DNA of 64,000 nucleotides, from the NCBI GenBank assembly GCA_030697795.1, contig JAUYOV010000004.1, positions 11,831 to 75,830 of the forward strand. The letters run 5' to 3'. The DNA comes from a bacterium. Lineage in GTDB: Bacteria; Patescibacteriota; Minisyncoccia; JACQLN01. Made by a program: the position numbers and the translations under genes. This document shows, one piece after another, positions 3,252 through 62,373 of the stretch. The first letter of the stretch is position 1. Every line of letters starts with the position of its first letter. The notes under the pieces are model-generated. The model saw only the letters and a program-made list of their open reading frames with translations. It was not told the DNA's origin and made no database searches.

Positions 3252-3258
3252 ACCAATT

Positions 3259-4443: not shown

Positions 4444-5181
4444 TTATGATTTTTTTATTATTTCATAAAATTCACTACTTTTTAAAGAAGTTCCTCCCAC
4501 CAAAGCACCGTCAATATATGGTTCACTTAAAAACTTACTTGCATTTTCGGCATTAACAGAACCGCCATATAAAAATTTTATCTTTTTAGAATCTTCGCCA
4601 AATATCTTAAAGGCCACGTGCTTGAGTTCGCCTATTATTTGATTTGAGCGCGCTGGGTTATCGGGCTTAGCGTTGGGTGTGGTACTTATAGCCCACACGG
4701 GCTCGTAAGCTACAATTAATTTTTCTAAGTTTGATTTGTCGGCGCCTGTAATACTTTTTTTAAAACTTTTTATAACTTCATCCAAGCGATCATCTTTCTG
4801 AAGTTCACCCACCGCAACTATTACATTAAAATCGGCTGCTAAAGCTGCTTTCATTTTTCTGTTAATGTCTTCGTCGGTTTCACCAAAAATTAAACGGCGC
4901 TCGGAATGACCCACCAAAACCCATGCCACTCCAACGCCTTTTAGCATGGGCAAAGAAACCTCGCCGGTATAAGCCCCTCTTTTTTCCCAAAAAACATCTT
5001 GGGCGCCCCATTTAAAGTGCTTAAAACGTTTTACCAATTCTTCTAAAAAAATAAATGGCGGCAAAAGAACAACCCTTTCAAATTCCTCCACTTTCATTGA
5101 ATGCACCAAACCAGCAGCCAAAGTGATGGCTTCGTTTAAAGTGGTTGGATTTAATTTCCAATTACCTACGATTAGCTTCAT
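4444..5181 (-). CDS. tpiA: Triosephosphate isomerase
   Basis: MKLIVGNWKLNPT..., GHSERR, AYEPVWAIGTG-like motifs. Confidence 0.9.
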   Translation of the reverse strand: MKLIVGNWKLNPTTLNEAITLAAGLVHSMKVEEFERVVLLPPFIFLEELVKRFKHFKWGAQDVFWEKRGAYTGEVSLPMLKGVGVAWVLVGHSERRLIFGETDEDINRKMKAALAADFNVIVAVGELQKDDRLDEVIKSFKKSITGADKSNLEKLIVAYEPVWAISTTPNAKPDNPARSNQIIGELKHVAFKIFGEDSKKIKFLYGGSVNAENASKFLSEPYIDGALVGGTSLKSSEFYEIIKKS

Positions 5182-5191
5182 ATATTAATAA

Positions 5192-5273
5192 ATATATCAT
5201 CCCGAGTAGCATCATGGAGAAGACTATTTATATAAATAAAGAGGCTCCATGTCGTCTGCGAGGGGTGATATAT
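5192..5273. repeat. Copy A of the ~80-nt intergenic hairpin element, a candidate REP-doublet (REPIN-like; core CCGAGCAGCATTATGGAGAAGACT...AGGCTCCATATCGTCTGCGAGG)
   Basis: One of 4 copies sharing a ~60-nt core (about 80-90% identity by eye), with terminal inverted arms (ATATATCATCCC/GGGTGATATAT) that covary between copies. Confidence 0.8.
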
Positions 5274-5289
5274 TTACGCCAATAAACAC

Positions 5290-6399: not shown

Positions 6400-7146
6400 T
6401 TAATTATATTTTCCCCTCCACAAATTTAATCTTACTTTTATAGTATCACGTAACACGCCTAAATAACCTGATAACTTTACATGGCTCTCGGCATCGTTTT
6501 CCCAATAAATAGGAATGATGCTAATTTTATACTTGAATTTTCTAGCCAGAGCCAACACCTCTACATCAAAACCCCAACGATTTATGGTTGCCTTAGAAAA
6601 TATTTTATTAGCAGCTTCAGCCGAAAAACCCTTAAAGCCATTCTGCGTATCCCAGATGCCAAAAACAGCCACCACCTGAATAAAAATATTGCCCATATTG
6701 CCCAGCAAACGCTTAAAGGCTGGTTGCGGTATGGCTTGCGTAGCCCCGATGGCATCTTTATAATCACGCGAGCCAATAACAACATGGAAGCCCTCTTTGA
6801 ATTTGGAAATCATTTTTTCTAGATGCTTGATATCTGTAGAATTATCGGCATCGGTAAAAACCCTGTACTCACCCTTGGCTTCTAGCATGCCTTGCTTAAC
6901 CACAAAACCTTTGCCGTGGTTTTGCTTATTACTGATTACTTTTAACTGGGGCCAATCTTTGGCCAATTTTTGAGCTACCTCGGCCGTGGTATCTTTGGCG
7001 CCATCTACCACAACCAAAACTTCATATGTATAATCTTGAGCAGATAAATATTCCTTGACTCTTTGGAGGGTTTTAGCGATTCTTTTTTCTTCGTTATAAG
7101 AGGGAATTATTATAGATATATATGGATCCATATTGTTTTGATTCAA
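6400..7146 (-). CDS. Family 2 glycosyltransferase (dolichyl-phosphate sugar transferase-like)
   Basis: ISIIIPSYNEE...DADNS GT2 motifs (DxD). Confidence 0.75.
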   Translation of the reverse strand: MNQNNMDPYISIIIPSYNEEKRIAKTLQRVKEYLSAQDYTYEVLVVVDGAKDTTAEVAQKLAKDWPQLKVISNKQNHGKGFVVKQGMLEAKGEYRVFTDADNSTDIKHLEKMISKFKEGFHVVIGSRDYKDAIGATQAIPQPAFKRLLGNMGNIFIQVVAVFGIWDTQNGFKGFSAEAANKIFSKATINRWGFDVEVLALARKFKYKISIIPIYWENDAESHVKLSGYLGVLRDTIKVRLNLWRGKYN

Positions 7147-7204
7147 TTATAGCAAATCCCGTTAGAAACAGCCCGCCCGTGGCGGGCGCGATTTCTAACG
7201 GGAC

Positions 7205-7238
7205 ATAAAAAAACGGCTCCGTTTTTTGTACGGAGCCA
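7205..7238 (-). terminator. Rho-independent terminator after the 7247..7594 gene
   Basis: GGCTCCG-loop-CGGAGCC hairpin followed on the minus strand by a U-run (plus-strand AAAAAAA at 7207-7213). Confidence 0.6.
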
Positions 7239-7246
7239 TAACACCA

Positions 7247-7594
7247 CTATTCGATCTTACCCAATTCGAGCTTAAGCTCTTGCGTCAACTCAGCTAGCTC
7301 ATCTTCATGTTCGCTTGGCTTTTCTGTTTGTTGTACTAACAAACTTAATTGGATCTCTTCACGGACATCTTCTGCTATGCATGCTTTCATTTCTTCTTCT
7401 TGTTTATCTGAAAGAGGCATTGTACCAACAACCAAAGTGAACTTAGCCGGGTTTGTAAAAACAATAGAGCACTTTGTACATATGTAAAGTGGCGACTTGT
7501 TGAAAGTGTCATCAGTTATAAGATCTTGTGAATGACCTATAGATTCATAATCTCTATTGCCACAAACCGCACACTTAAAAGAAACTTTATCCAT
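7247..7594 (-). CDS. Hypothetical protein with N-terminal CxxC...CxxC zinc-ribbon and acidic C-terminus
   Basis: ORF only; CAVCGN...CTKCS. Confidence 0.4.
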   Translation of the reverse strand: MDKVSFKCAVCGNRDYESIGHSQDLITDDTFNKSPLYICTKCSIVFTNPAKFTLVVGTMPLSDKQEEEMKACIAEDVREEIQLSLLVQQTEKPSEHEDELAELTQELKLELGKIE

Positions 7595-8267: not shown

Positions 8268-8354
8268 CAATCGCATCATTCCGAGCAGCATTATGGAGAA
8301 GACTAAATTATAAATAAAGAGGCTCCATATCGTCTGCGAGGAGTGATGCGATTG
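8268..8354. repeat. Copy B of the ~80-nt hairpin element
   Basis: Same core; terminal arms CAATCGCATCA/TGATGCGATTG. Confidence 0.8.
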
Positions 8355-9691: not shown

Positions 9692-9713
9692 GGTAATGGT
9701 AAAAAATTTAAAA

Positions 9714-9793
9714 AACATTGTCCCGAGCAGCATTATGGAGAAGACTATTTTATAAAATAAAGAGGCTCTATATCGTCTGCGAGGGATAATGTT
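9714..9793. repeat. Copy C of the ~80-nt hairpin element; fills the whole adk-map spacer
   Basis: Same core; arms AACATTGTCCC/GGGATAATGTT. Confidence 0.8.
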
Positions 9794-9795
9794 TT

Positions 9796-10362
9796 TTATA
9801 ACCCCAGTACCTGTTTAATTCGCAAATGAATTTCCTCTATACTACCCATACCATCAACCTTAATCAACCTATTCGATTTTTCGTAATATTCTATAGCTGG
9901 CATTGCATCGGTATTAAACCATTCCAAACGATGACGAATTGATTCTTCGGTATCATCTTTGCGTCCGCGTTTTAAAAGCCTTGTTACTGCTTCGTCTTCT
10001 GTAATATCTATTAAAACAACTTTAATATCTACTCTACCCAACCAACTTAAAACTTCGTCTATTTCTTTGGCTTCATCTAAACGACGAGGTGAGCCGTCAA
10101 AAATTATATTTTCTCCATCTTTTAATTTATAAACTAGTTCCTTCTGCCATAAAAAAGCGGCAATCCACTCTGGGGGCAGACCACCAGAATCCACAACTTC
10201 TTTAACTTTTTTACCAGCTAAAGTCTCTTCTTTTTCTAATAAACGAAAAAGATCGCCGGCGTAAATATAAAGACAGGGTTCTATAAGCTTTTTTAAAAGC
10301 TTAACCTGCGTGCCCTTACCCGACCCCGATCTGCCTAAAACGATTATGGTTTTACTAGACAT
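9796..10362 (-). CDS. adk: Adenylate kinase
   Basis: GRSGSGKGTQ P-loop and DGSPRRLDEA; start taken at MSSKT. Confidence 0.8.
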   Translation of the reverse strand: MSSKTIIVLGRSGSGKGTQVKLLKKLIEPCLYIYAGDLFRLLEKEETLAGKKVKEVVDSGGLPPEWIAAFLWQKELVYKLKDGENIIFDGSPRRLDEAKEIDEVLSWLGRVDIKVVLIDITEDEAVTRLLKRGRKDDTEESIRHRLEWFNTDAMPAIEYYEKSNRLIKVDGMGSIEEIHLRIKQVLGL

Positions 10363-11884: not shown

Positions 11885-14806
11885 ATGGTAACCAATATGG
11901 ATCTCTCTAGATTTAAAAAAGAACTAGGCGCCTTAAACCCCGAACAACGCCAAGCGGTGGAGACAATTGAGGGACCGGTTATGGTTATAGCCGGCCCTGG
12001 TACGGGAAAAACACAAATTTTAACTTTGCGGATTGCTAATATTTTAAACAAAACCGACACCAACCCCGAAAATATTCTAGCTTTAACTTTTACTGAATCT
12101 GCTACCGCCAACATGAGGCGTCGTCTAACCAGTTTGATCGGTACGCCTAGCTACTACATTAATATCCATACTTTTCACGGTTTTTGTAACAAGCTTATCC
12201 AAGATTACCCAGAAAACTTTCCAAAAATAATTGGCTCCACCAATGCTAATCAAGTAGATCAAATACAAATTATTAGAAAGATTATAGACGAGCATGGTTT
12301 TAAGAATTTGAAGCCATTCGGTAGTAAGTATTATTACGTTACCGAAATACTAAAAAACATCCGCCAATTAAAAAGCGAAGGTATTGGTCCTGTTGAATTT
12401 AAAAATATAACTTCTAAAATAAATCTCGAAGACCCCAAAGAGGAAAAAAATACCGAACGCTTAAAAGAACTATCTTTGGTATATAAAAAATATCAAGCCG
12501 AACTTTCAAAAAGAAAGCTATACGATTTTGAAGATATGATTTTGGAAACCATAAATTCGCTCAAAAAAGATAAGGATTTTTTGTTAGACCTTCAAGAAAA
12601 ATACCAATACATATTAGTAGACGAACACCAAGACACCAACGGCGCCCAAAATAAAGCCTTAGAGCTTTTAACCAATTATGATGAGAACCCAAACTTGTTT
12701 GTGGTAGGCGACGAAAAACAAGCTATTTACCGTTTTCAAGGCGCTAGTTTAGAAAACTTTTTATATTTTAAAGAAAAGTTTAAAAAAGCGAAATTAGTAG
12801 AATTAAAACAAAATTATCGCTCTACCCAAAAAATATTGGATGCCTCACATAGCTTAATAAAAAAAAATATAGCTGTCTTGGCTTTAACCAAACTCCAAGC
12901 CCAAAAAGGCAGGACCGACCTTCCTAGAAGGTCGGTCCTGCAGGTGGCAACCTGCGCTACACCCGAAATAGAATACCTTTTTATAACTCAAAAAATAAAA
13001 GAACTTCTAAGGCAAAAGGTTGAAGCTAGCAAAATTGCAATCTTATATAGAGAAAATAAAGATGCTTTTTCTGTTTCCGACTTTTTAACTAAACAGAATA
13101 TAAAACACGGCATAGAATCCGATGAAAACATATTAGAAGATATGGATATTAAAAAACTAAATATTCTTTTTGATGCCATAGAAAACTTTCCTTCTTTAGA
13201 ATTTTTAGCTCCAGCCTTACACCTAGATTTTTTAAATATAAACCCCTTAGAAGCTTATAAAGCCATAGAATCAAAAGATTTTAATAGTTCGCCTAATGTG
13301 TCTAACCTATTTAAAAAAATAGGTGAGCTTAAAAAATATAGCCGTAATAATGTTTTTGTTAAATTTTTTGAAAAAGTAATAAACGATACTGGTTTTTTAA
13401 AAAACATACTGGCCGAGGCCAATTACAACGAAAGATTAAATAAACTTCATGCTTTGTTTAGCGAAGTTAAAAAAATAAATTTTGCTAACCACAATTTTTC
13501 TTTACCAAACTATCTAAATCATTTAGAAATTTTAAGGGAACATAACTTGCCTATTCAAATTAAAACAAAAACATTACCCGCAAATGTTCGCTTAATGACG
13601 GCTCACCGAGCCAAAGGCCTAGAATTTGATTATGTATTTATTATAGGCGCCTACAATGGCCATTGGGGCAATAAAAGAAATATGAGCCATATAAAACTCC
13701 CCATAAAAACAAGCTTTGATGCTGATAAAATAGAAAAAAACGAGGATGAGCGCAGATTGTTTTATATGGCCATCACTCGAGCCAAAAAAGAAGCTTACAT
13801 AAGTTATTCCACTTCTTCGTTTGACGGCAAAGAGCAAGTGCCTAGCCAATTTATAAACGAAATCGATCCCGCCTTAAAAGAAGAACATATAATTGAGCAA
13901 AATCCAGAAATTAAAAAAATTGTACTAGCTTCAATTTCTAATAACAAAGCACCAAAAACAAATGAAAAAACTTTTGTGGTAGATATATTTTTGCGCCGTG
14001 GCTTCTCGCCTACCTCGCTAAATAATTATTTAACCTGCCCCTGGAATTTTTTCTATAACAATCTGCTTCGCATACCCAAAGCCCAAGCCAACTATTTAAT
14101 TTATGGCAACGCCAAGCACAAGGCCTTACAGCTTTTTTTTGATGAGAAAGAAAAAAATAAAAAAATAGGCTCTAAATTTATAATAGAAAAATTTATAGAA
14201 GATTTACGAAATTACCCTTTAATACCGAAGGATCATGAAACCTTGCTTAAAAAAGGAATAGAAAGTTTAACCGCCTATTATAATTTTTATAAAGATTCTT
14301 GGCCCGAAAAAACAGTAAACGAATACAACATTAAAGGAGTTAGTTTTAACTTAGGCGCGCAAGAAATAAAACTAAGCGGAAAACTAGATCGCTTAGAACT
14401 AAAACCAAATAGCCCAGCTGTTACAGTAGTAGATTACAAAACTGGAGCCGCCAAAAGCCGAAACGAAATTTTAGGCAACACCAAAAACGCCGATGGTAAT
14501 TATTTTAGACAACTTGTTTTCTACAAATTGCTTTTAGATATGTTACCCAACAAAAAATATAATATGCTGGCTGGTGCAATTGACTTCACTGAACCCCTCG
14601 ACTCCGCTCGACAAGGCTCGGGGCAAGCCGCTCGGGGCAAGCCTGCCTTTAAAAGAGAGGTTTTTGAAATTTCTAACGAAGAAACAAAAGCACTTAAAGA
14701 AACTATCACTAAATGCGCAAATGAAATTTTAAACTTAAAATTTTGGAACAAACTCTGCGGTGAAAAAGATTGTGAATATTGCGAGTTAAGAAAGTTAGTT
14801 TCTTAA
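11885..14806 (+). CDS. UvrD/PcrA-family SF1 helicase fused to a C-terminal PD-(D/E)xK nuclease domain with a Cas4/AddB-like Cys cluster
   Basis: AGPGTGKT Walker A, DEHQDTN motif II, DRLELK...VVDYKTG nuclease core, C...CGEKDCEYC. Contains two in-frame GC-rich inserts. Confidence 0.8.
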   Translation: MVTNMDLSRFKKELGALNPEQRQAVETIEGPVMVIAGPGTGKTQILTLRIANILNKTDTNPENILALTFTESATANMRRRLTSLIGTPSYYINIHTFHGFCNKLIQDYPENFPKIIGSTNANQVDQIQIIRKIIDEHGFKNLKPFGSKYYYVTEILKNIRQLKSEGIGPVEFKNITSKINLEDPKEEKNTERLKELSLVYKKYQAELSKRKLYDFEDMILETINSLKKDKDFLLDLQEKYQYILVDEHQDTNGAQNKALELLTNYDENPNLFVVGDEKQAIYRFQGASLENFLYFKEKFKKAKLVELKQNYRSTQKILDASHSLIKKNIAVLALTKLQAQKGRTDLPRRSVLQVATCATPEIEYLFITQKIKELLRQKVEASKIAILYRENKDAFSVSDFLTKQNIKHGIESDENILEDMDIKKLNILFDAIENFPSLEFLAPALHLDFLNINPLEAYKAIESKDFNSSPNVSNLFKKIGELKKYSRNNVFVKFFEKVINDTGFLKNILAEANYNERLNKLHALFSEVKKINFANHNFSLPNYLNHLEILREHNLPIQIKTKTLPANVRLMTAHRAKGLEFDYVFIIGAYNGHWGNKRNMSHIKLPIKTSFDADKIEKNEDERRLFYMAITRAKKEAYISYSTSSFDGKEQVPSQFINEIDPALKEEHIIEQNPEIKKIVLASISNNKAPKTNEKTFVVDIFLRRGFSPTSLNNYLTCPWNFFYNNLLRIPKAQANYLIYGNAKHKALQLFFDEKEKNKKIGSKFIIEKFIEDLRNYPLIPKDHETLLKKGIESLTAYYNFYKDSWPEKTVNEYNIKGVSFNLGAQEIKLSGKLDRLELKPNSPAVTVVDYKTGAAKSRNEILGNTKNADGNYFRQLVFYKLLLDMLPNKKYNMLAGAIDFTEPLDSARQGSGQAARGKPAFKREVFEISNEETKALKETITKCANEILNLKFWNKLCGEKDCEYCELRKLVS

Positions 14807-17949: not shown

Positions 17950-18119
17950 GCTGGAATTATGTATCAGAAATCGGGAATTAGGAAGTCTAATTTGACATAA
18001 ATAGCTAATCAAGCACTCTCTTATGTTAAACATCCAGTGTTTAACATTGAGGTACATGATAATCCCTTTCAACTCGCAGACTCTGTTCAGGGTATTTATT
18101 CAACACTTAGTGTTGAATA

Positions 18120-18153
18120 AATAAAAGAGAGGCTCCTGTTTAGAAACCTCTCT
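18120..18153 (-). terminator. Rho-independent terminator after the GC-rich gene
   Basis: AGAGAGG...CCTCTCT hairpin followed by a minus-strand U-run. Confidence 0.55.
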
Positions 18154-23653: not shown

Positions 23654-26044
23654 TTAGGAAAAATTTTCTTTGTTTTCCTCTTCTGTGTGTATATCTATAG
23701 CTTCTGGTGGAACTTCTGATTTTACTAAAACCTCTCTAGGTTTAGCCCCTTCACCGGGACCAATCATGCCTTGAGCTTCTAGAATATCGAGTAATCTTGC
23801 GGCGCGGGCGTAGCCGACTCTTAATCGTCTCTGGAGTAAAGAAGCCGAAGCTTTACCAGCCTGCATAATAGCTTCTTTGGCTTGGAGTAAAAGTTCATCT
23901 TCGTCACTAGAATCCATTTTATCAAAACTTACACCGGTAAGTATTGGTCTATGATCTGAGACAGCTTTTTCCAAACCAAGCGCTTCTTCTGGATTAGCAT
24001 CAGGCGCGTCTTCGGGTAGATTAGATCTTATAAACGAAACAACTTTTTTAACTTCTTTTTCCGAAACAAAAGTGCCTTGAATACGTTTGGGCTTGGGCGA
24101 ATCAGAAGTTACAAAAAGCATATCGCCCATGCCTAAAAGTTTTTCGGCGCCAGCCGAATCTATAATTGTCCGTGAATCTATTTGCGAAGCCACCGCAAAA
24201 GCTATGCGCGTGGTAATGTTAGCTTTAATTAAACCCGTAATAACTTCTACCGAGGGCCGCTGTGTGGCTAAAACCAAATGTATGCCCACCGCCCGCGCCA
24301 TCTGCGCTAAACGCACTACTGTAGCTTCTATTTCACGCCCGTAAGTAGACATTAAGTCGGCCAGTTCATCTATAATGATAACCAAATAAGGCATTAAATC
24401 GTCGCCTTTTTTAGCATCAACTTGAGAATTAAAACCGCCAATATCTCTAACTTTTTTTTCGGAAAGCAGGCTATATCTTCTTTCCATTTCTGAAGTCGCC
24501 CATTTTAAAGCCGACACCGCTTTTTTAGGCTCTACTATAACTGGGGTTAAAAGATGCGGAATACCATTATACAAAGTTAATTCAACTCTTTTAGGATCAA
24601 TCATTATAAAGCGTAAAATTTCTGGCGAATGTTGATACAGCAAATTAACAATTAACGAATTTATGGCTACGCTTTTACCCGAACCCGTGGCGCCCGCAAT
24701 AAGCAGATGAGGCATTCTGGTTAAAGCCGACCACATCGACCGGCCAGAAACATCTTTGCCTAAACCAATATTTAAAAAGTTTTTATGCTCCGAAGCCTCA
24801 AAACCCTGAAGCAAAGCTTTTAAACGCACCACCATAGATTTTTGATTGGGTATTTCTATGCCCACTAAAGATTTTCCCGGAATCGGCGCTTCTATTCTTA
24901 AAGATTCTCCGCCTAGGGCTAAAGATAAATCTTTTTGCAAAGCTAATATGCTAGCCAGTTTGACTCCAGTGGCTGGTTTTAAAGTAAACTGGGTTACCGC
25001 AGGGCCAATATTAACTTCCGACATTTCTACCGGAATATTAAAATTCTCTAAAGTTTTCTGAATAATTATGGCATTGCCCTTAATGTCGCCCGTCACCGGC
25101 ATAGAGCCTTCGTCTTCTAATAAATCTAATGGTGGAAATTTATAGTTAACGGAAAGTGGCAACACACTAAATCCGCTCGCCATATTTTCTTGTTTCTTTT
25201 TTGAAACCTCATCTGACTTGGCCATTACTGACGTACCTTGAGGAGAATTTATAGTGACAGTGTCTTCAGCCGGTTTGGGCGCTTCAACTTTTTTAGCGGT
25301 TTGAGGTAGTTTAGCTTTGCTGGCTAACGTTGCAATTTTAGTTACTAAACCTTTTTCTAAAACTAATTTTTTTTCTGGAATCATTTCGCCATTTTCGTCC
25401 GCCTTAAAAACAAATTTTTCTTTTATTTGATCTTTCAAAGGCAAACGAAAAACAATCAACATAGCCGAAAAGAAAAACGCCACAAAAAATATTAAAGAAC
25501 CCCAAAAACCAAACATCTGCCTAAACGGCCAGCCAAAATAATAACCCATTTTACCGCCAGCCTGATTTTGCGAAAATATTTCCATCAAGCCCAAAAAACT
25601 TAAAATTAGAACACTGCCCCCGATTATAGTGGAACCTAATATTTTTTTCTTGTCGGAAGTTAAAATAAAAAACGACATTAAAAACATCGTTAAAGGCACA
25701 AAGAAACTACCGGAACCAAACATATAATCGGCACCGGCTGTAATGGCTTCGGAAAAAGATCCCGACAAGCCAAAGAAAGCTAAGGTAGTTACCAAAGCCA
25801 CAGCCAGCAAAAGAACGCCCACTACGCTTCTTTTAACGCTTGATTCTAAATGGAGCCAAGAAGTTGTTCTTTTTGGCTTTTTTACTTGAGATTTTTTAAG
25901 ATTTTTAATATCCTCCTTTTCTTTTTCAGCAGGCATTAGGTTTAATCTATTACTAGAAAATAATAACATACAAAAAAGCCAAATAACAACAACGTTTTTC
26001 AGGAAGGGCGGTCCTTCCGATAGATTTCCTGCTATTTTTGGCAA
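23654..26044 (-). CDS. ftsK: DNA translocase FtsK/SpoIIIE; true start downstream of the ORF-track start, whose first codons overlap a REP
   Basis: GATGSGKS Walker A, C-terminal gamma wHTH domain, N-terminal TM segments. Confidence 0.9.
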   Translation of the reverse strand: MPKIAGNLSEGPPFLKNVVVIWLFCMLLFSSNRLNLMPAEKEKEDIKNLKKSQVKKPKRTTSWLHLESSVKRSVVGVLLLAVALVTTLAFFGLSGSFSEAITAGADYMFGSGSFFVPLTMFLMSFFILTSDKKKILGSTIIGGSVLILSFLGLMEIFSQNQAGGKMGYYFGWPFRQMFGFWGSLIFFVAFFFSAMLIVFRLPLKDQIKEKFVFKADENGEMIPEKKLVLEKGLVTKIATLASKAKLPQTAKKVEAPKPAEDTVTINSPQGTSVMAKSDEVSKKKQENMASGFSVLPLSVNYKFPPLDLLEDEGSMPVTGDIKGNAIIIQKTLENFNIPVEMSEVNIGPAVTQFTLKPATGVKLASILALQKDLSLALGGESLRIEAPIPGKSLVGIEIPNQKSMVVRLKALLQGFEASEHKNFLNIGLGKDVSGRSMWSALTRMPHLLIAGATGSGKSVAINSLIVNLLYQHSPEILRFIMIDPKRVELTLYNGIPHLLTPVIVEPKKAVSALKWATSEMERRYSLLSEKKVRDIGGFNSQVDAKKGDDLMPYLVIIIDELADLMSTYGREIEATVVRLAQMARAVGIHLVLATQRPSVEVITGLIKANITTRIAFAVASQIDSRTIIDSAGAEKLLGMGDMLFVTSDSPKPKRIQGTFVSEKEVKKVVSFIRSNLPEDAPDANPEEALGLEKAVSDHRPILTGVSFDKMDSSDEDELLLQAKEAIMQAGKASASLLQRRLRVGYARAARLLDILEAQGMIGPGEGAKPREVLVKSEVPPEAIDIHTEEENKENFS
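26000..26032. repeat. REP1 palindrome CAGGAAGGGCGGTCCTTCCGATAGATTTCCTGC at the 3' end of RAYT-1
   Basis: Further copies at 26526-26542 (inside RAYT-1), 26735-26750, 59691-59722; related sequence inside the helicase CDS at 12909-12941. Confidence 0.8.
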
Positions 26045-26706
26045 TCTTTATAGGAAAGCCAATCAAGAATAAAATCATCAAAGTCCTTTACACCGTCGAA
26101 ATAATCTGGAAAAGCTTTTTTGTTGATAATTTTTTGCTCTAATCTTTGAACACCTACATAATCAAGATAACTGGAATAATTATAACCATTTAAAAAATTT
26201 TGGGCCGCTAATTTATTTTTAATACCAGTTTCTTTCCAGTTAGGTTCAATCAACTTAATAGAATTTAAGTGTGTATAGGCAAAAATATATTTCAGATATT
26301 CATCTCTTTCAATATGTTTTGCTTGAAACCTTCCCTGAAATAAAGAACCGCTACGATCATGTCTTTTATTGAAATACATGGAATAACCGGTGGATACTTT
26401 TCCCATAAATTTAGAGAGTCCACCTTCTACAGTTTCTCTTGCAAGTAAATGGAAATGATTCGGCATTAATACATGTGCGCCTAAAGCAGTAATATCATCG
26501 CCAGTATTTACATCAAAAATATCTGGGAAGGACCGCCCTTCCAAAAGAAGCTCATTGATATCTACACGGTCATTGTTATTACAAAGATAAAGGAGCATCA
26601 AAAAACGTCTATATTCGCCTGTAGATTCAAATATAGTCCTCTTATCCACACCTCGATTGTAGATATGATAATATTCCCCTACAGAGAAAGTGAATTTACG
26701 TTGCAT
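26032..26706 (-). CDS. REP-associated tyrosine transposase (RAYT; IS200-like HuH Y1 transposase), copy 1
   Basis: GEYYHIYNRGV, HuH motif LMPNHFHLL, catalytic-Tyr helix region; flanked by REP1 palindromes. Confidence 0.7.
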   Translation of the reverse strand: MQRKFTFSVGEYYHIYNRGVDKRTIFESTGEYRRFLMLLYLCNNNDRVDINELLLEGRSFPDIFDVNTGDDITALGAHVLMPNHFHLLARETVEGGLSKFMGKVSTGYSMYFNKRHDRSGSLFQGRFQAKHIERDEYLKYIFAYTHLNSIKLIEPNWKETGIKNKLAAQNFLNGYNYSSYLDYVGVQRLEQKIINKKAFPDYFDGVKDFDDFILDWLSYKDCQK

Positions 26707-26766
26707 TCAATAATTATAATTCCTTAGGGTATTTATCGGAAGGGCGGTCCTTTTTAGGCCTAGGGT

Positions 26767-26840: not shown

Positions 26841-26918
26841 GTCGGGGGTAGCTCAATTGGTCAGAGCGGCTGACTGTGGATCAGACTGTGTCGGTTCAAA
26901 CCCGGCTCCCCGGCACCA
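26841..26918 (+). tRNA. tRNA-His (anticodon GTG) with G-1:C73
   Basis: Manual cloverleaf: G-1, acceptor TCGGGGG/TCCCCGG, D-arm GCTC/GAGC, anticodon loop CTGTGGA, T-arm GTCGG-TTCAAAC-CCGGC. Confidence 0.7.
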
Positions 26919-26927
26919 AAATTTAAT

Positions 26928-27013
26928 GGGCGTGCGGCTGAAAGGACTCCTCTGGACAGTTGGAGAAATCCGATTGAAGCTGGTGTCAGGAAATCCAGTC
27001 ACGCCCACCAATC
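26928..27013 (+). other. tRNA-like element (perfect 7-bp acceptor-type stem GGGCGTG/CACGCCC, terminal ACCA) with no canonical cloverleaf
   Basis: 86 nt between the two tRNAs. Possible degenerate class-II tRNA or tRNA-derived structured RNA; identity unresolved. Confidence 0.3.
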
Positions 27014-27017
27014 GTGT

Positions 27018-27123
27018 TCCGCGGTAACTCAGAGTGCTGACTTAAGGGCCGCAAGCCCCGGCCGGTTAGAGTGCCTAGCTGATAACTAGGAGGTCGTTGG
27101 TTCGAATCCAACCCGCGGAGCCA
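27018..27123 (+). tRNA. tRNA-Ile (anticodon GAT) carrying a ~31-nt hairpin insertion in the D-loop
   Basis: Acceptor TCCGCGG/CCGCGGA, D-stem ACTC/GAGT, anticodon arm CCTAG-CTGATAA-CTAGG, T-arm GTTGG-TTCGAAT-CCAAC, G73-CCA. Insert 27033-27063 AGTGCTGACTTAAGGGCCGCAAGCCCCGGCC. Confidence 0.5.
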
Positions 27124-30745: not shown

Positions 30746-30841
30746 AACACAGAATTTCTAATTTCCAATATCTAAATCCTAAACAATTTCTAAATTCTAA
30801 TTTTCCAGAATATATTTGGAGCATTGTGATTTGAGATTTGT

Positions 30842-32128
30842 TTAGAGTTTAGTGCTTAGGATTTGGAGTTCGATTAGAAATTTTTCTAACTCTTTTAGTT
30901 TAACCATCTCCACTTTCTCGCTGGCGCGATTTTTGACCTCCACACTTTCTTGCGCCAAAGTTTTATCGCTAACTATTATCCGATATGGAATACCAATTAA
31001 ATCAGCATCCGACAACTTTACACCGGCCGATTCTTCGCGATCATCCCATAAGACGTCAAACGTCTTTAAAGATTGATACAGCTTCTCGGCTTCTTTCTTG
31101 GTATCGCCCAATGAAACTAAATGAATTAAAAACGGAGCCACGCTCTTTGGCCACTTCATTCCAGCCTCATCGTTAAAAACTTCGGCCAGCACTCCAACTA
31201 AACGGCTCATACCTATACCATAACTGCCTAAGTATGGCGGTTTATCTTTACCATCGGAATCTTTAAAATTAATCCCCATTTTTTCGGAATAAACTGTGCC
31301 AAATCTAAATATATTTCCAATTTCAACGGAACTAGCTTCTTCAACTTGTCCACCGCATTTTGGACAAGGATCCCCAATCTTGTGAGTATAAATTTCTTTG
31401 TTTTGCGCCCAATCACATTCGCCAGCCGGCGAATTGCAGAAATAAATATTATCTTCACCTACTGGGCTTACTAACTGAAATTCATGTGTATGACCCGAAG
31501 TAAACACACCGCCCGAAGCTTCAACCACCTTAACATCTTTTAATCCAACCCTGTTAAACACTCGTAAATAAGCATCTTTAACTTCCCAGTAAAATTTGTC
31601 TAGATCTTCCCCTGTGGTATGCAAACTATATAAATCTTTCATCATAAACTCCCGCCCGCGCAATAGGCCTGACTTAGCCCGAGCCTCGTTTCTAAACTTG
31701 GTAGAAAAGTGATAAAGCTTAATCGGTAAATTTTTATAGCTTAAAGAATTTTTCCTAACTACATCTAAAAATATTTCCTCGTGTGTAAAAGAAAGTCCAT
31801 ATTCTTTTTCGTCTACCGATTTAAACTGATACATTATCTGTTTAACATTTGGATCTGCCCAACGGCCGGTTTCATTCCAAACATCGCGAGGATGAAGTAA
31901 TGGCATTAAAACTTCGGCACTGCCAATAGCATTCATTTCTTCACGCACGATTTGTTCTATTTTTTGATAAACCCGCCAACCTAAAGGCAAAAAGGTGTAT
32001 GAACCCGCCATAAGCTTGTCTACAAAACCCCCACGCAAAAGCAACCTAGCATTAGTAGCTGTTTCGTCCTTTGGATCATCCCTGCGAGTGTTTATAAACG
32101 ATTGAGAGTAACGCATAAGAGTTATCAC
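30842..32128 (-). CDS. proS: Prolyl-tRNA synthetase (short form lacking the INS editing domain)
   Basis: MRYSQSF..LLRGG..YTFLPLGWRV..IVREEMN..G..EVLMP, closely paralleling E. coli ProRS motifs. Confidence 0.85.
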   Translation of the reverse strand: MITLMRYSQSFINTRRDDPKDETATNARLLLRGGFVDKLMAGSYTFLPLGWRVYQKIEQIVREEMNAIGSAEVLMPLLHPRDVWNETGRWADPNVKQIMYQFKSVDEKEYGLSFTHEEIFLDVVRKNSLSYKNLPIKLYHFSTKFRNEARAKSGLLRGREFMMKDLYSLHTTGEDLDKFYWEVKDAYLRVFNRVGLKDVKVVEASGGVFTSGHTHEFQLVSPVGEDNIYFCNSPAGECDWAQNKEIYTHKIGDPCPKCGGQVEEASSVEIGNIFRFGTVYSEKMGINFKDSDGKDKPPYLGSYGIGMSRLVGVLAEVFNDEAGMKWPKSVAPFLIHLVSLGDTKKEAEKLYQSLKTFDVLWDDREESAGVKLSDADLIGIPYRIIVSDKTLAQESVEVKNRASEKVEMVKLKELEKFLIELQILSTKL

Positions 32129-32789: not shown

Positions 32790-32823
32790 TAGCATGAGCC
32801 ATGCGATCGCATGACTCATGCTA
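32790..32823. repeat. GCGATCGC-core palindrome TAGCATGAGCCATGCGATCGCATGACTCATGCTA (REP3 family)
   Basis: Family members at 50245-50280, 50896-50929, 52902-52931. Confidence 0.7.
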
Positions 32824-33942: not shown

Positions 33943-34099
33943 AAATGTCTAATATCCAATTACTAATATCGAATCAATGACTAATTTATAAATGCCTAAT
34001 TTTGAATTTAGTTATTAGACATTGGGATTTGATTAGAAATTATCCCTCGATTGGGCTCGGGATCCTGAGCCTGTCGAAGGAGGTATTAGAAATTGGAAA

Positions 34100-34654: not shown

Positions 34655-34691
34655 AAAAGTCTAGATTATAAACCCTCTCGATTTATTCCCC

Positions 34692-34720
34692 ACATGTTCA
34701 ACATTCAATGTTGAACATGT
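34692..34720. repeat. REP2 palindrome ACATGTTCAACATTCAATGTTGAACATGT, left flank of RAYT-2
   Basis: Perfect palindrome; copies at 34901-34925 (inside the CDS) and 35390-35418. Confidence 0.85.
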
Positions 34721-34734
34721 TATAATTTTGATAT

Positions 34735-35391
34735 ATGAGAAAAACAATTTTGGCCGAAGGCGAATATTATCATATCTATAATCGTGGTGTAGAGAAAAGA
34801 AACATATTTTTAAACGATAACGATAAGTGGCGATTTATGACCCTCTTACTAATATTTCAAGGCAAGGGTCATATTGATAATATGCAACGTATTGTTAAAC
34901 TTGTTCAACATTCAATGTTGAACAAAGAACCATTTGACGACATCCTTTTGAATAAAAAGGTTGAACTGATATGTTTCTGTCTGATGCCAAATCATTATCA
35001 CCTTATATTAAAAGAAATTAAAAATGGAGGAATTTCTAGTTTTGGGCAAAGATTAGGTAACAGTTATACAAAATATTTCAACACTAAATATAAACGCACT
35101 GGACACTTATTTGGTGGAAGATTTCAAACGGTTCACATAACTCAAAATACATATCTCAAACATTTATCTTCTTATATACACAATAATCTAACAGAACTAA
35201 ATAATTGGAAAAAATTGGAAAACGAATATTTTTGGTCAAGTCTGCCAGATTATGTAAATAAAAACCGATGGGATAAGTTTCTAAACCCGGAAATAATTCT
35301 AAACCAGTTTAGGGGTAAAAATGATTATCTAAATTACATCAAAAATAATCGAAACAAAATTAAAAAACTAGATGGTTACTATATAGATTAA
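34735..35391 (+). CDS. REP-associated tyrosine transposase (RAYT), copy 2
   Basis: GEYYHIYNRGV, LMPNHYHLIL HuH motif; paralog of 26032..26706. Confidence 0.7.
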   Translation: MRKTILAEGEYYHIYNRGVEKRNIFLNDNDKWRFMTLLLIFQGKGHIDNMQRIVKLVQHSMLNKEPFDDILLNKKVELICFCLMPNHYHLILKEIKNGGISSFGQRLGNSYTKYFNTKYKRTGHLFGGRFQTVHITQNTYLKHLSSYIHNNLTELNNWKKLENEYFWSSLPDYVNKNRWDKFLNPEIILNQFRGKNDYLNYIKNNRNKIKKLDGYYID

Positions 35392-35418
35392 TTGTTCAAC
35401 ATTCAATGTTGAACAATT
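35390..35418. repeat. REP2 palindrome, right flank of RAYT-2
   Basis: AATTGTTCAACATTCAATGTTGAACAATT. Confidence 0.85.
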
Positions 35419-35431
35419 GGATCAGAGAGAT

Positions 35432-35470
35432 AATAAAAAGAGGCGTTCGATTAAGTCGAACGCCTCGGTG
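35432..35470 (-). terminator. Rho-independent terminator (GAGGCGTTCGA...TCGAACGCCTC plus U-run) ending the GC-rich small-gene transcript
   Basis: Strong 11-bp stem followed by a minus-strand TTTTT. Confidence 0.6.
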
Positions 35471-35647
35471 AGGATCTGCTTCCCCATGGCTCTCCATTTT
35501 TGATTCAATCGGTTCAAAAACGGGGACAAAAGACCTTTTCGTAGTGTGGTTTAAGTTACCAACTTCGTCGCATTCCTCTCACCTCCTTTCGTACACGCCG
35601 CTTGGTTTTCTCCAGAGGCGGCGGCCGAAGTTACCAGCTCACAGAGC

Positions 35648-37969: not shown

Positions 37970-38058
37970 GCAGAAATATTATCTTGAGCAGCATTGTGGA
38001 GAAGACTATTTATATAATAAAGAGGCTCCACATCGTCTGCGAGAGATAATGTTTCTGC
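37970..38058. repeat. Copy D of the ~80-nt hairpin element
   Basis: Same core; arms GCAGAAATATTATCT/AGATAATGTTTCTGC. Confidence 0.8.
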
Positions 38059-39074: not shown

Positions 39075-39269
39075 AATAGTATAAATTACGAAATTCTAAT
39101 ATCTAAATTCGAAACAATATCTAAATATTAAATTATAATTTGGAATTTTGAACATTGTGATTTGTTTAGAATTTAGTGCTTAGTATTTATAATTTTCTGC
39201 CGACTTTATACTAACATCCTAAAACCATTTTTCAAACTAATCAAAGTATGCTAATTTAAAGTCGTTAAA

Positions 39270-50244: not shown

Positions 50245-50280
50245 TTAGCACGAGTCATGCGATAGCAGTTCTCATGCTAA
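50245..50280. repeat. REP3-family palindrome (degenerate) overlapping the 3' end of PaaX-like paralog 2
   Basis: TTAGCACGAGTCATGCGATAGCAGTTCTCATGCTAA. Confidence 0.6.
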
Positions 50281-50895: not shown

Positions 50896-50929
50896 TAGCA
50901 CGAGAACTGCGATCGCAGTTCTCGTGCTA
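50896..50929. promoter_or_regulatory. Perfect 34-nt palindrome TAGCACGAGAACTGCGATCGCAGTTCTCGTGCTA in the promoter region of PaaX-like paralog 2
   Basis: REP3 family; candidate operator. Confidence 0.5.
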
Positions 50930-51721: not shown

Positions 51722-52690
51722 CTTGTAATGTCTCATATCTTATGCATAGGTTTTAGTTAGTATTTGAGCCATCTTTTGAGCAGGGGTTAAACCCTGTAAA
51801 CCTAGATGTGGACGATGGTTGATAAACTTGTCAGTGTAGGTTTTTAAGGAGCTATTCAAGGTGGTTAGAGACTGATTTAAGGATACTTTTCTCCAGAGTT
51901 CTTCGTCAATGGTTCTAATGAATCTCTCTACTATGGAATTGTCTCTAGGTTTTCTGATTCTTGAATAACGATGCAGAATCTTTAACTTGTTTAATTCTTG
52001 AACAAACTCTTTCTGAAACTCGGGACCATTATCTGTTTGAATCATCCCTACTTTAAAAGGTAATCTAGTTAAAGCTGATCGTAAAGCTCGGCTGGCTGAT
52101 GCCATAGAAAGTTTTTCTGTAACAATACAGACTGGATATATATCTGGTAGCCACATCCACGAAAACATACTGGTATCTTCTAGATTGATTTTTAACCATT
52201 AGATGCTTGGTATCTAACAAAACTAGCTTGCCGTCCTCTTGGGGTCTAAAGATGGGAGGTAGTTGTCTGTGTCTCCTTTGGTATCTATGTTTTGATTTAA
52301 TCAGCTGGTTTCTTTTAAGGACGCGGTAGGTTGTTATGTTGGTAATGCTGATACCTTGAGCCTTCAGGTAAAGAACTATCTTTTGATGACACCAACCCTC
52401 GGTTTTTCTTAAATGAATAATCTTTTCTTCTAACTCCAGAGAGGTCTGCTTGGGATGGGCACTTAAAGGCATCGGTCGAAAACTTTGAAGAGTGGGATAC
52501 ATACCCAACCAGCGGCTGATGGTAGATTGGTTGAAACCAAAGTATCTACTGATTCTCGACTGCGACCAACCTAACTCTTTAAGTTGCCAAACTTGGCGTC
52601 TGACTGCGATAATGTTTTTGTGAATGTGCATATATGGTGAGTGTATCATTTGACTACTCACCTATGCATTTTGAATGAAACATTACAATT
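51722..52690 (-). mobile_element. IS481-family-like insertion sequence (~970 bp) with imperfect ~30-bp terminal inverted repeats (TTGTAATGTYTCAT...ATGCATAGGT)
   Basis: Left IR 51722-51752 matches the reverse complement of right IR 52655-52690; encodes an HTH plus DDE (rve) transposase. Confidence 0.7.
51740..52661 (-). pseudogene. IS481-like DDE transposase split into two overlapping ORFs by a frameshift in a T5/A5 homopolymer (~52112-52116)
   Basis: The ORFs 52065..52661 (HTH plus start of rve) and 51740..52168 (DNGPEF...rve core) are related by a +1 shift. IS481 transposases are normally single-ORF. Confidence 0.55.
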
Positions 52691-53876
52691 ACTCTATAAC
52701 TCCTCCGCCTAGCAGTTCTTCACCCTGATAAAATACTACCGATTGGCCAGAGGCGACAGCGCGGACTGGTTTTTCAAAAACCACCTTCCACCGAGCTGAG
52801 CTCGGTCCGCTTTCAAGCTTTGATAACATTGCCGAAATTGGTTCTTGTCTGTAACGAATAGATGCCTGAATTTTAACCAACTTCTCTGATTCCTCTTTTG
52901 TACACCGAGCATACGATCGTATGCTCGGTGTATCATTATTTATAAAACTAACATTAGTAGCAATTAACTCTTTTGATTCTAAAGCCGACATATCTGTAAT
53001 AGGCGAAACGATTAAAGTATTAGTTTCGTAATCTTTTTTAGCAACGTAATACGGCCCAGTACCTCCTATGCCGATTCCTTTTCGTTGGCCAATGGTGTAA
53101 AAATATAAACCGGCATGTGTGCCAATTTTTTGCCCAGAAGTTGTAACAATATCGCCAATTTCTTTTTTAACGTACGGCTTTATAAATTCTTTAATATCCA
53201 CCGGCCCCATAAAACAAATTCCCTGTGAATCCTTTTTATTTGCCGTAGATAAACCCGCACCTTTCGCAAGTTTTCTAACTTCCGCTTTAGAGTCTATTTC
53301 GCCTATGGGGAATAAGCACTTAGCCAGTTGTTTTTGCTTGAGAGTCCAAAGGAAATAGGACTGATCTTTGTCTAAATAGCGAGCACGCAATAGCTTATAG
53401 CTTTTAGCTTTTAGCTTATTAGAATTTGAAAATTGGAAATTAAAAATTGGAAATTCCCGCGCCACGCGAGCATAGTGGCCCGTGGCAATATAATCAGCTC
53501 CAAGAGAAATAGCTTTTTCAAAAAATAAACCAAATTTAATTTCTTTATTACACATTACATCTGGGTTTGGAGTTCGCCCAACTGCATATTCGCGAAGCAT
53601 ATAATCTACCACCAAAGCTTTATATTCTTTTGTAAAATCCCAAGTTTCAAAGGGTATATTTAATTTTAAACAAACCCGCATAGCATCAGCACGATCTTCC
53701 TGCCACAAGCAAGGCCAAGCTGGATCGCTCCAGTTTTTCATAAATACACCGATTACATTATAGCCTTCATTTTTCAATAACAAAGCAGCAACAGAGCTAT
53801 CAACTCCGCCACTCATGCCTACATAAACCTTTCGACTCCGCTCAGGGCAAGTTTTTTGACCAACCGTATTTGACAT
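52689..53876 (-). CDS. mnmA: tRNA-specific 2-thiouridylase MnmA
   Basis: VGMSGGVDSSV PP-loop. Carries three in-frame repeat insertions; the IS abuts its stop codon. Confidence 0.85.
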   Translation of the reverse strand: MSNTVGQKTCPERSRKVYVGMSGGVDSSVAALLLKNEGYNVIGVFMKNWSDPAWPCLWQEDRADAMRVCLKLNIPFETWDFTKEYKALVVDYMLREYAVGRTPNPDVMCNKEIKFGLFFEKAISLGADYIATGHYARVAREFPIFNFQFSNSNKLKAKSYKLLRARYLDKDQSYFLWTLKQKQLAKCLFPIGEIDSKAEVRKLAKGAGLSTANKKDSQGICFMGPVDIKEFIKPYVKKEIGDIVTTSGQKIGTHAGLYFYTIGQRKGIGIGGTGPYYVAKKDYETNTLIVSPITDMSALESKELIATNVSFINNDTPSIRSYARCTKEESEKLVKIQASIRYRQEPISAMLSKLESGPSSARWKVVFEKPVRAVASGQSVVFYQGEELLGGGVIE

Positions 53877-59690: not shown

Positions 59691-59722
59691 CAGGAAGGGC
59701 GGTCCTTCCGATAAATTTCCTA
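59691..59722. repeat. Distant copy of REP1 (CAGGAAGGGCGGTCCTTCCGATAAATTTCCTAG)
   Basis: About 33 kb from RAYT-1. Confidence 0.75.
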
Positions 59723-62240: not shown

Positions 62241-62373
62241 AATTTATAAATTTCTAATATCTAATTTCTAATCAAATTCTAATGCCTAATAACTAAAGTA
62301 TAAATTTTGGCATTAGACCTTTGGTAATTAGTCATTGATTAGGAATTAGTAATTAGATGTTAGTCATTTTTTA

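Follow-up and report, generated by a model that had tools for sequence, protein, structure and literature searches.

The window analysed here is a stretch of 64,000 nt from a contig (JAUYOV010000004.1) of an ultra-small bacterium of the Patescibacteria, and it contains RAYT-2, a small gene for a Y1/HUH tyrosine transposase homologue (RAYT, transposase associated with repetitive extragenic palindromes, REPs). One palindrome, here called REP2, is found ahead of this gene, within its open reading frame (ORF) and at its stop codon. Gene and hairpins together lie on an insert that is missing from related lineages. The features of the locus are listed below.

34660..35416, plus strand: cassette, a 757-bp insert made up of left arm, 5′ hairpin, promoter, ORF and 3′ hairpin
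34660..34691, plus strand: left arm CTAGATTATAAACCCTCTCGATTTATT, 32 nt outside the 5′ hairpin
34692..34720, plus strand: 5′ hairpin, 29-nt perfect palindrome, core 34695-34717
34698..34726, plus strand: promoter-like site, -35 TCAACA (34698-34703), 17-nt spacer, TGnTATAAT (34718-34726)
34735..35391, plus strand: RAYT-2 ORF, 218-aa Y1/HUH tyrosine transposase homologue, intact
34901..34925, plus strand: internal hairpin (site 1), 25-nt perfect palindrome, in frame, encoding (L)VQHSMLN(K)
35390..35418, plus strand: 3′ hairpin, core 35392-35416, its foot being the right end of the cassette

Three copies of the 23-mer TGTTCAACATTCAATGTTGAACA, none with a mismatch, are present in the window (34695-34717, 34902-34924 and 35393-35415), against a chance expectation of 0.00 copies in 100 dinucleotide-preserving shuffles, and the reverse-strand match has one mismatch, which is the central base. 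The extended perfect palindromes measure 29, 25 and 29 nt at 34692-34720, 34901-34925 and 35390-35418, the coordinates that a first-pass annotation of the sequence had given. The same annotation had put the 5′ palindrome 15 nt before the start codon; the distance to the ATG was measured as 14 nt from the extended end and 17 nt from the core. As also claimed, the 3′ palindrome overlaps the stop codon, covering the last two bases of TAA (35389-35391), and the ORF translation confirmed that the internal palindrome is read in frame as VQHSMLNK, occupying residues 56-64, (L)VQHSMLNK. These results confirmed that the three hairpin copies at RAYT-2 are real and beyond chance. The bases flanking them are CCAC/GTTA, AAAC/AGAA and TTAA/TTGG, the GT[AG]G foot tetranucleotide is absent at all three, and Rfam gave nothing at the RAYT-2 locus or adjoining it. 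The 3′ hairpin was ruled out as an intrinsic terminator, as no T-run follows it; a terminator at 35440-35466 is on the strand opposite RAYT-2. Ahead of that terminator on the minus strand, 35470-35545 includes about 72 nt that are 92% identical to the corresponding DNA of one related lineage (L133) and 82% identical to that of another (L138). This stretch is far better conserved than the neighbouring intergenic DNA, ends at the intrinsic terminator, has no Rfam match and could represent a small RNA, either whole or as its 3′ end.

The reading of RAYT-2 as a Y1/HUH transposase homologue was supported. The protein matched Pfam PF01797 (Y1_Tnp) with 39 bits (cut-off 23, E = 1e-9), and the HUH motif N86-H87-Y-H89 and the catalytic Tyr147 (YIHNN) fall in invariant columns of a 28-sequence alignment (A1). 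An AlphaFold (AF2) model with a mean confidence (pLDDT) of 80.6 matched the PDB entries 2a6m, 2xo6, 2vjv and 4er8 with a Foldseek probability of 1.00, that is, the folds of IS608 TnpA, ISDra2 TnpA and E. coli TnpA_REP (4er8); 4er8 was the solved structure with the lowest root-mean-square deviation, 4.7 Å over 163 columns, and a PDB search by sequence gave marginal TnpA matches only. The name RAYT holds in so far as the gene is a Y1 homologue with cognate flanking palindromes, but not by score against the RayT equivalog model NCBIfam NF047646, whose cut-off of 80 bits is reached neither by RAYT-2 (31.7 bits) nor by its paralog RAYT-1 (37.6 bits). The motifs in alignment A1 are NHYH, FQ, the family consensus YIHLNP and a C-terminal WSS, RAYT-2 itself having YIHNNL. 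They fit the second motif row of TnpA_Y1 subclass 2.1 (Quentin, Siguier, Chandler and Fichant, 2018; PMC6006769), an assignment made at the level of motifs only. A Y---NP-type motif by family consensus and two paralogs that are 36% identical place RAYT-2 among class 2 TnpA_Y1 proteins. In the AF2 model, residues 57-63 comprise the end of helix 50-58 and part of the loop 59-64 that leads to helix 65-72, so that site 1 is placed between helix A and the HUH strands; a second insertion site seen in relatives (site 2, below) is placed in low-confidence coil after the Tyr helix.

The first-pass annotation had described RAYT-2 as the second of two divergent paralogs, each paired with its own palindrome. 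The results showed that this is the case: RAYT-1 has the palindrome GGAAGGGCGGTCCTTCC (REP1) where RAYT-2 has TGTTCAACATTCAATGTTGAACA, and it repeats the three-site plan of RAYT-2 with this different sequence. Its features are as follows.

26032..26706, minus strand: RAYT-1, 224-aa paralog, 36% identical to RAYT-2
26002..26018, unstranded: RAYT-1 3′ hairpin GGAAGGGCGGTCCTTCC, 13 nt past the stop codon
26526..26542, unstranded: RAYT-1 internal hairpin, an inverted copy, in frame, encoding LEGRSFP
26738..26754, unstranded: RAYT-1 5′ hairpin, two mismatches, 31 nt ahead of the ATG

The internal hairpins of RAYT-1 and RAYT-2 occupy the same place in the protein alignment. Homologues of the two are plentiful in Patescibacteria (2,974 word-sharing matches; 5,664 clusters at 50% identity and E <= 1e-10), and the layout was scored in a sample of 80 metagenomic loci and two GTDB loci with homologues, in which 78 genes had sufficient flanking DNA. 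In each gene, 16-mers of the ORF were compared with both strands of the 120 nt upstream and of the region around the stop codon, and up to two mismatches were allowed in a match. The results showed that matches between ORF and flanks are confined to nt 150-225 (site 1) and nt 435-495 (site 2), with about zero elsewhere. Upstream and downstream hairpins matching each other were found in 60 of the 78 genes. A site-1 copy is present in 53, matching both flanks in 38 of them, and a site-2 copy in 12; 18 genes have flank hairpins and no internal copy, and three have no repeat at all. A folding-energy scan that was blind to the repeats gave minima at -60/-50 from the ATG, at +160 to +180 and at the stop codon, together with a weak one at +440 to +470. 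The in-ORF copy that had been reported as a trait of RAYT-2 is therefore present but not peculiar to this gene, being found across the family and in RAYT-1 too. Distant genes carry unrelated hairpin sequences, with stems of 6 to 25 bp. At site 1, several genes have a doubled insert, a REPIN-like perfect palindrome of 44-52 nt that stays in frame.

Perfect palindromes of 36-52 nt, translated as 12-17 residues, were seen at site 1 in loci L061, L073 (two genes), L078, L064, L116 and L122, and several of them consist of two inverted hairpin units, like REPIN doublets. In L041 (GTDB metagenome-assembled genome JBBTUP010000015), three divergent paralogs lie within 8 kb (92-733, 2636-3292 and, on the minus strand, about 6800-7475), each with its own hairpin, and one of these hairpins has a tandem extra arm at its 3′ end, TGTTCAACATTGAATGTTGAACAATGTTGAACAT. 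The homologues P0042, P0059 and P0119 in alignment A1 have the 3′ hairpin inside the ORF, so that the C-terminus nearly repeats the site-1 peptide; examples for site 1 and C-terminus are VEHRMFN and VEHRMFNI, and VQSSTLH and VQSSTLH.

The distance from strand beta1 to the HUH motif is larger in proteins with a site-1 copy (median 73 versus 66 aa, p = 3e-5). Some natural members are without the whole site-1 segment of about 27 residues (about 25-28 aa by match offsets) and others are expanded. As judged from these comparisons, site 1 is an insertion-prone, variable segment of the protein.

The first-pass annotation had also suggested that gene and palindrome evolve together, and the 78 homologues, the syntenic orthologs and the covariation described here all bear this out. 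The closest homologues of RAYT-2 (P0002, P0003 and P0004) occupy a single locus, between the genes for ribosomal protein L25 and fructose-bisphosphate aldolase, on contigs from three different samples or assemblies (L125, L128 and L131). Their hairpins differ from that of RAYT-2 in the window and among themselves: GTTCAACAT...ATGTTGAAC in the window, flanks CAC...GTG in L125, CACTTAGAG in L128 and TGTCAAACAT...ATGTTTGACA in L131. In each gene, all three sites (5′, internal and 3′) carry the variant of that gene, and in L128 one and the same stem mismatch recurs at all three. The presence of gene-specific variants at every site of syntenic orthologs implies that the hairpin copies are kept alike in place.

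Covariation was examined at the level of DNA in 20 site-1 segments that had been placed by protein alignment alone and had the core columns filled, six visibly out-of-register distant sequences having been left out, a selection that qualifies the result. The result showed that the RAYT-2 hairpin pairing holds in 86% of cells, compared with 70% after shuffling (none of 500 shuffles reached the observed value) and 32-44% with the partner slid, and that changes on both sides were seen in 8 of the 11 paired positions of the hairpin. Among 120 homologous proteins, residues 58/62 and 59/61 are compatible as codon complements in 0.80 and 0.66 of cases, respectively (0.62 and 0.50 in shuffles, none of which attained the observed values); compatible pairs are Q-L, K-F, E-F, H-M and H-V, and off-register residue pairs in the same proteins gave no signal. 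Pairing within the ORF is thus kept through compensatory codon changes, so that DNA structure constrains the peptide. These alignments showed that the hairpin partly dictates the protein sequence.

Comparison with related genomes showed that RAYT-2 is on an insert. In four related lineages (L133, L134/135, L138/139 and L140/141), whose Frr proteins are 80-89% identical, the same locus lacks the cassette. Gene order is kept in these relatives (MreB, DNA polymerase III delta′, a BNR-repeat protein, frr and an M50 peptidase), and in all four lineages frr comes after the BNR gene without any Y1 gene intervening. The empty site reads AACATGAAAATG-TT-TTGGAATAAAAAAGAG-terminator and is split in the window at 34659/34660 and 35416/35417, the boundaries being precise to about 2 nt. 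The empty sites in four lineages imply that the 757-bp segment bearing RAYT-2 is an insert. The junctions show no evident target duplication, and the ends are asymmetric, with 32 nt beyond the left hairpin and 0 nt beyond the right. The L125, L128 and L131 orthologs are preceded by a terminator-like hairpin, GAGGGTTGCCTAAYCAGCAACCCTC-TTTTT, to whose 3′ half and T-run the left arm aligns, and similarity to those loci starts at the left arm. This homology suggests that the cassette came from a locus of the L25 type and was cut in the loop of the terminator-like hairpin. Given that gene and hairpins are together inserted relative to the related lineages, the behaviour of RAYT-2 is closer to that of a minimal cassette of the IS200 type than to that of a RAYT domesticated and fixed in its host.

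At the same locus in L133, an extra palindrome-rich segment of about 110 nt (about 4890-5000; TTGTAGCGAATAGCTACAA; GGAAATTC..GAATTTCC) lies between the frr promoter motif and the frr ATG. It is absent from the window, L134 and L138, implying that intergenic hairpin elements come and go there.

The promoter-like site ahead of RAYT-2 has 10 of 12 consensus matches plus the TG extension. Its -35 box and spacer lie inside the 5′ hairpin, and the predicted -10 box ends 8 nt upstream of the ATG; in RAYT-1, a TATAAT lies 6 nt upstream of the ATG. Across the family, a -10-like box ends 4-9 nt before the start codon in 40 of 84 genes, and a Shine-Dalgarno-like core is present in seven of the 84. The mRNAs of RAYT-2 and its family are predicted from these motifs to be leaderless. 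Because the 5′ hairpin is upstream of the predicted transcription start, an RNA-level role for it was ruled out, and the hairpins most likely act as DNA.

The account that we regard as probable, though well short of assured, is that RAYT-2 is a compact Y1 cassette with the same near-perfect hairpin at both ends and a third copy placed in frame where the protein has a variable surface segment. The encoded enzyme would recognize and cleave these hairpins as single-stranded DNA. Internal copies would have arisen when the element inserted into the enzyme's own gene, as might be expected of transposases, which prefer to act in cis, and the insertions that survive would be those in frame and in two permissive loops only. 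The copies would then be homogenized by copying between sites, through enzyme-mediated replacement or through short-tract conversion or template switching. Binding of the enzyme at the 5′ copy, over the -35 box and spacer of its own promoter, might autoregulate expression.

Several points weigh against this account. Binding or cutting of the hairpins by the enzyme is proposed by analogy with IS200/IS605 elements and REPs, and the RAYT-2 promoter is a prediction made by consensus match only. Inspection across genes found no conserved foot or guide motif beside the hairpins. Relative to the site-1 copy, the loop has the same orientation in 18 upstream hairpins and is inverted in 17, the figures downstream being 26 and 11; loop orientation is not conserved and so implies no fixed strand, unlike the situation in IS608. 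The single insertion polymorphism could instead have arisen by illegitimate recombination, and the genes P0002-P0004 stay at one locus across species, implying that mobility is at most occasional. Finally, fixed position and frame within the RAYT-2 subfamily fit one old insertion better than repeated insertion.

A stronger form of the account, which we consider doubtful, is that the enzyme works on the in-ORF hairpin, which would be no tolerated passenger but a master copy, protected by coding selection, from which the promoter-proximal and terminal copies are regenerated. The occurrence of the L128 coding-copy stem mismatch in both flanks hints at such a flow from internal to flank copies, and in a related reading alternative hairpin pairs would yield alternative excision products. 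If true, this would be a self-referential transposase gene in which DNA structure and encoded peptide evolve as one, in thousands of Patescibacteria lineages.

The most serious competitor, unlikely in our view yet with a real chance of being correct, is a classical domesticated RAYT with its REPs: RAYT-2 would be a fixed host gene that disperses REP2 genome-wide, and the copies at the gene would be mere members of the dispersed family, as the first-pass annotation had supposed. Low-copy divergent paralogs are indeed usual for class-2 TnpA_REP genes (PMC6006769), and the exact REP2 stem GTTCAACATnnnATGTTGAAC occurs in GTDB representative genomes, mostly of Patescibacteria, usually alone and with no Y1 gene nearby; of its 45 occurrences, 27 are outside long open frames. 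The number of exact copies is 1-3 per genome, however, with one in a complete 716-kb chromosome, and the 64-kb window holds no REP2 beyond the gene, only two degenerate relatives at 18.0-18.1 kb. The surroundings of 42 homologues likewise yielded nine extra hairpin copies in 295 kb; their closeness to the genes agrees with a RAYT that spreads REPs, but most are within 3 kb upstream. Over the DNA covered, these counts lend little support to REP2 as a dispersed REP family. REP1 has one further copy in the window, a solo intergenic one at 59693-59709, which would suit such dispersal. This copy, however, comes with adjoining sequence from the 3′ end of RAYT-1 (31 nt at 97% identity, weaker over 46 nt) and resembles a relic of a gene copy more than a mobilized REP. 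The low score against the RayT model and the insertion of the gene together with its hairpins also argue against a domesticated RAYT.

Improbable too, and more so than a domesticated RAYT, is that the in-ORF hairpins are selected cis-regulatory elements and not tolerated insertions. They could be mRNA stem-loops that act by slowing translation or by recruiting RNase III, or binding sites by which the protein holds down its own synthesis; the flank copies would match because all copies are recognized by the same protein. Pairing upheld by compensatory changes across the subfamily, stems of up to 25 bp in some genes, fixed positions across a family of thousands of clusters and the overlap of the 5′ copy with the promoter could all be explained in this way. 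Against it, the 18 genes with flank hairpins and no internal copy and the natural variants without the segment show the internal copy to be dispensable, the 5′ copy cannot act in RNA from its position upstream of the predicted transcription start, and loop orientation is random. Sites 1 and 2 bracket the HUH-Tyr catalytic core, as they would if the hairpins were module boundaries, that is, recombination sites for shuffling N-terminal, core and C-terminal modules between paralogs. This is very improbable, given that 3741 gene pairs showed no clear identity outliers (largest z = 4.3, in short segments) and that the different hairpins of paralogs in one genome would prevent such recombination. 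Least credible of all, and contradicted by the data, is a reading in which a conserved peptide gives rise to the internal palindrome incidentally and the flanks are unrelated to it. Close homologues do conserve the peptide V-[QKE]-H-x-x-[LF]-[ND] fairly well, but the untranslated flanks have the same sequence and follow the changes of the internal copy, distant homologues have unrelated peptides and hairpins at the same place that again match the flanks, and the residue pairs covary as codon complements.

The window contains further palindromes and repeats, of which those related to REP1 and REP2 are the following.

59693..59709, unstranded: solo copy of the RAYT-1 hairpin (REP1), intergenic
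18023..18047 (ATGTTAAACATCCAGTGTTTAACAT) and 18093..18123 (TATTTATTCAACACTTAGTGTTGAATAAATA), unstranded: REP2-like palindromes that differ from REP2, 77% to REP2 (family D4)

No remnant of a Y1 gene was found near 18023-18123. Two other genes contain in-frame perfect palindromes: GCAGGACCGACCTTCCTAGAAGGTCGGTCCTGC at 12909-12941, in a 973-aa ORF (11885-14806), encodes GRTDLPRRSVLQ and has GGACCG..CCTTCC in common with REP1, and TACACCGAGCATACGATCGTATGCTCGGTGTA at 52901-52932 lies in a 395-aa ORF (52689-53876). Intergenic palindromes of 34 nt, TAGCAYGAG..GCGATCGC..CTCRTGCTA, are present at 32790-32823, 50246-50279 and 50896-50929, with 76-100% mutual identity (family D8), and no gene was found to go with them. 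An internally complementary intergenic element of about 60-86 nt, GAGCAGCATTATGGAGAAGACTA...AAAGAGGCTCCATATCGTCTGCGAG, occurs in four copies (5190-5275, 9711-9796, 8283-8340 and 37986-38043; families D3 and D9) and could be MITE-like (resembling a miniature inverted-repeat transposable element) or a structured RNA. AT-rich intergenic repeats with TCTAA/TTAGA-like units, both direct and inverted, lie at 30753-30882, 33944-34041, 39084-39206 and 62242-62306 and adjoin several genes (families D1, D5, D11, D15, I2 and I4). The tRNA-His gene at 26841-26918 is followed by a weak Rfam tRNA match (27049-27119, 30.1 bits), where ARAGORN gives no tRNA. An acceptor-like 5′ half apparently lies near 27020, some 25 nt ahead of where the Rfam match begins, and a long stem ending in CCACCA occupies 26929-27010; the region 26920-27119 may be an interrupted or atypical tRNA.

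Among the closest known systems is TnpA_REP subclass 2.4: REPs are found in frame inside tnpA_REP, a feature called 'unique' to 2.4, and lie in a peripheral, variable region of the protein (PMC6006769). Subclass 2.4 and the RAYT-2 family have in common a class-2 Y1 gene, cognate flank hairpins and frame-keeping copies inside the gene. They differ in the sites, which in the RAYT-2 family are before the HuH strand (residues 56-64) and, in relatives, after the Tyr helix, as well as in the absence of a GTAG foot, the motif FQ and the Patescibacteria hosts; fixed positions, concerted change and covariation are not reported for 2.4 in that study (PMC6006769). Subclass 2.1 (Bertels group 1; 'TIRYT') is characterized by NH[YF]H, FQ, Y[IV]HLNP and a C-terminal SS, a median length of 238 aa and low-copy divergent paralogs (PMC6006769, Table 1), and automatic and manual searches found no REP-like sequences near its genes (PMC6006769). 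The RAYT-2 family is like subclass 2.1 in the motifs of alignment A1 and in its low-copy divergent paralogs, and differs from it in having matching flank hairpins in the majority of the genes scored (60/78).

Elements of the IS200/IS605 family (IS608, ISDra2 and IS200) resemble the RAYT-2 cassette in the Y1/HUH fold, very small size, a hairpin at each end, asymmetric ends and presence/absence polymorphism with clean junctions and no obvious target duplication, the last of these in one case. RAYT-2 differs in having YIHNN (Y---NP-like) and not Y---Q, in having as its only paralog in the window a protein 36% identical, and in possessing a C-terminal domain. In IS608 both end hairpins act on one strand, whereas the ends of the RAYT-2 cassette are the same near-perfect palindrome and imply no fixed strand. 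To our knowledge, internal hairpin copies have not been described in IS200/IS605 elements. The E. coli REPtron (the yafM TnpA_REP with REP/BIME sequences) likewise combines a Y1 enzyme with cognate flanking hairpins. E. coli REPs, however, have hundreds of dispersed copies and a GTAG foot (PMC6006769), and neither was seen for RAYT-2. Palindromic elements of Rickettsia and others, or intragenic REPs, are in-frame, loop-tolerated insertions in protein genes (Ogata, 2000, as cited in PMC3733652), and the in-frame palindromes of RAYT-2 and those of 32-33 nt in two further window genes are similar in this respect. The Rickettsia elements differ in lying in unrelated host genes, with no cognate enzyme gene or fixed positions. 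A literature search on RAYT/Y1 transposases in Patescibacteria found nothing relevant, a weak negative since most subscription journals lay outside the search. Taken together, in-frame REPs inside RAYT genes are already known, and the RAYT-2 family differs from them in subclass, insertion positions and hairpin type. What the family adds is fixed positions throughout, concerted evolution, covariation at the level of codons and evidence of movement of a whole cassette.

Y1/HUH enzymes, with the hairpins that go with them, mould bacterial genomes in the form of REPs, REPINs and IS200/IS605 elements. The present results indicate that a very large Patescibacteria branch, which by motif belongs to a subclass reported to be without REPs, does have cognate hairpins, and they offer a clear example from nature of protein sequence dictated by the secondary structure of DNA. 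In-frame palindromes and predicted leaderless starts matter for gene calling and for the assembly of Patescibacteria genomes. As each gene has three or four copies of its own presumed substrate, the family is a tractable system for studying how transposase and hairpin specificity diversify together.

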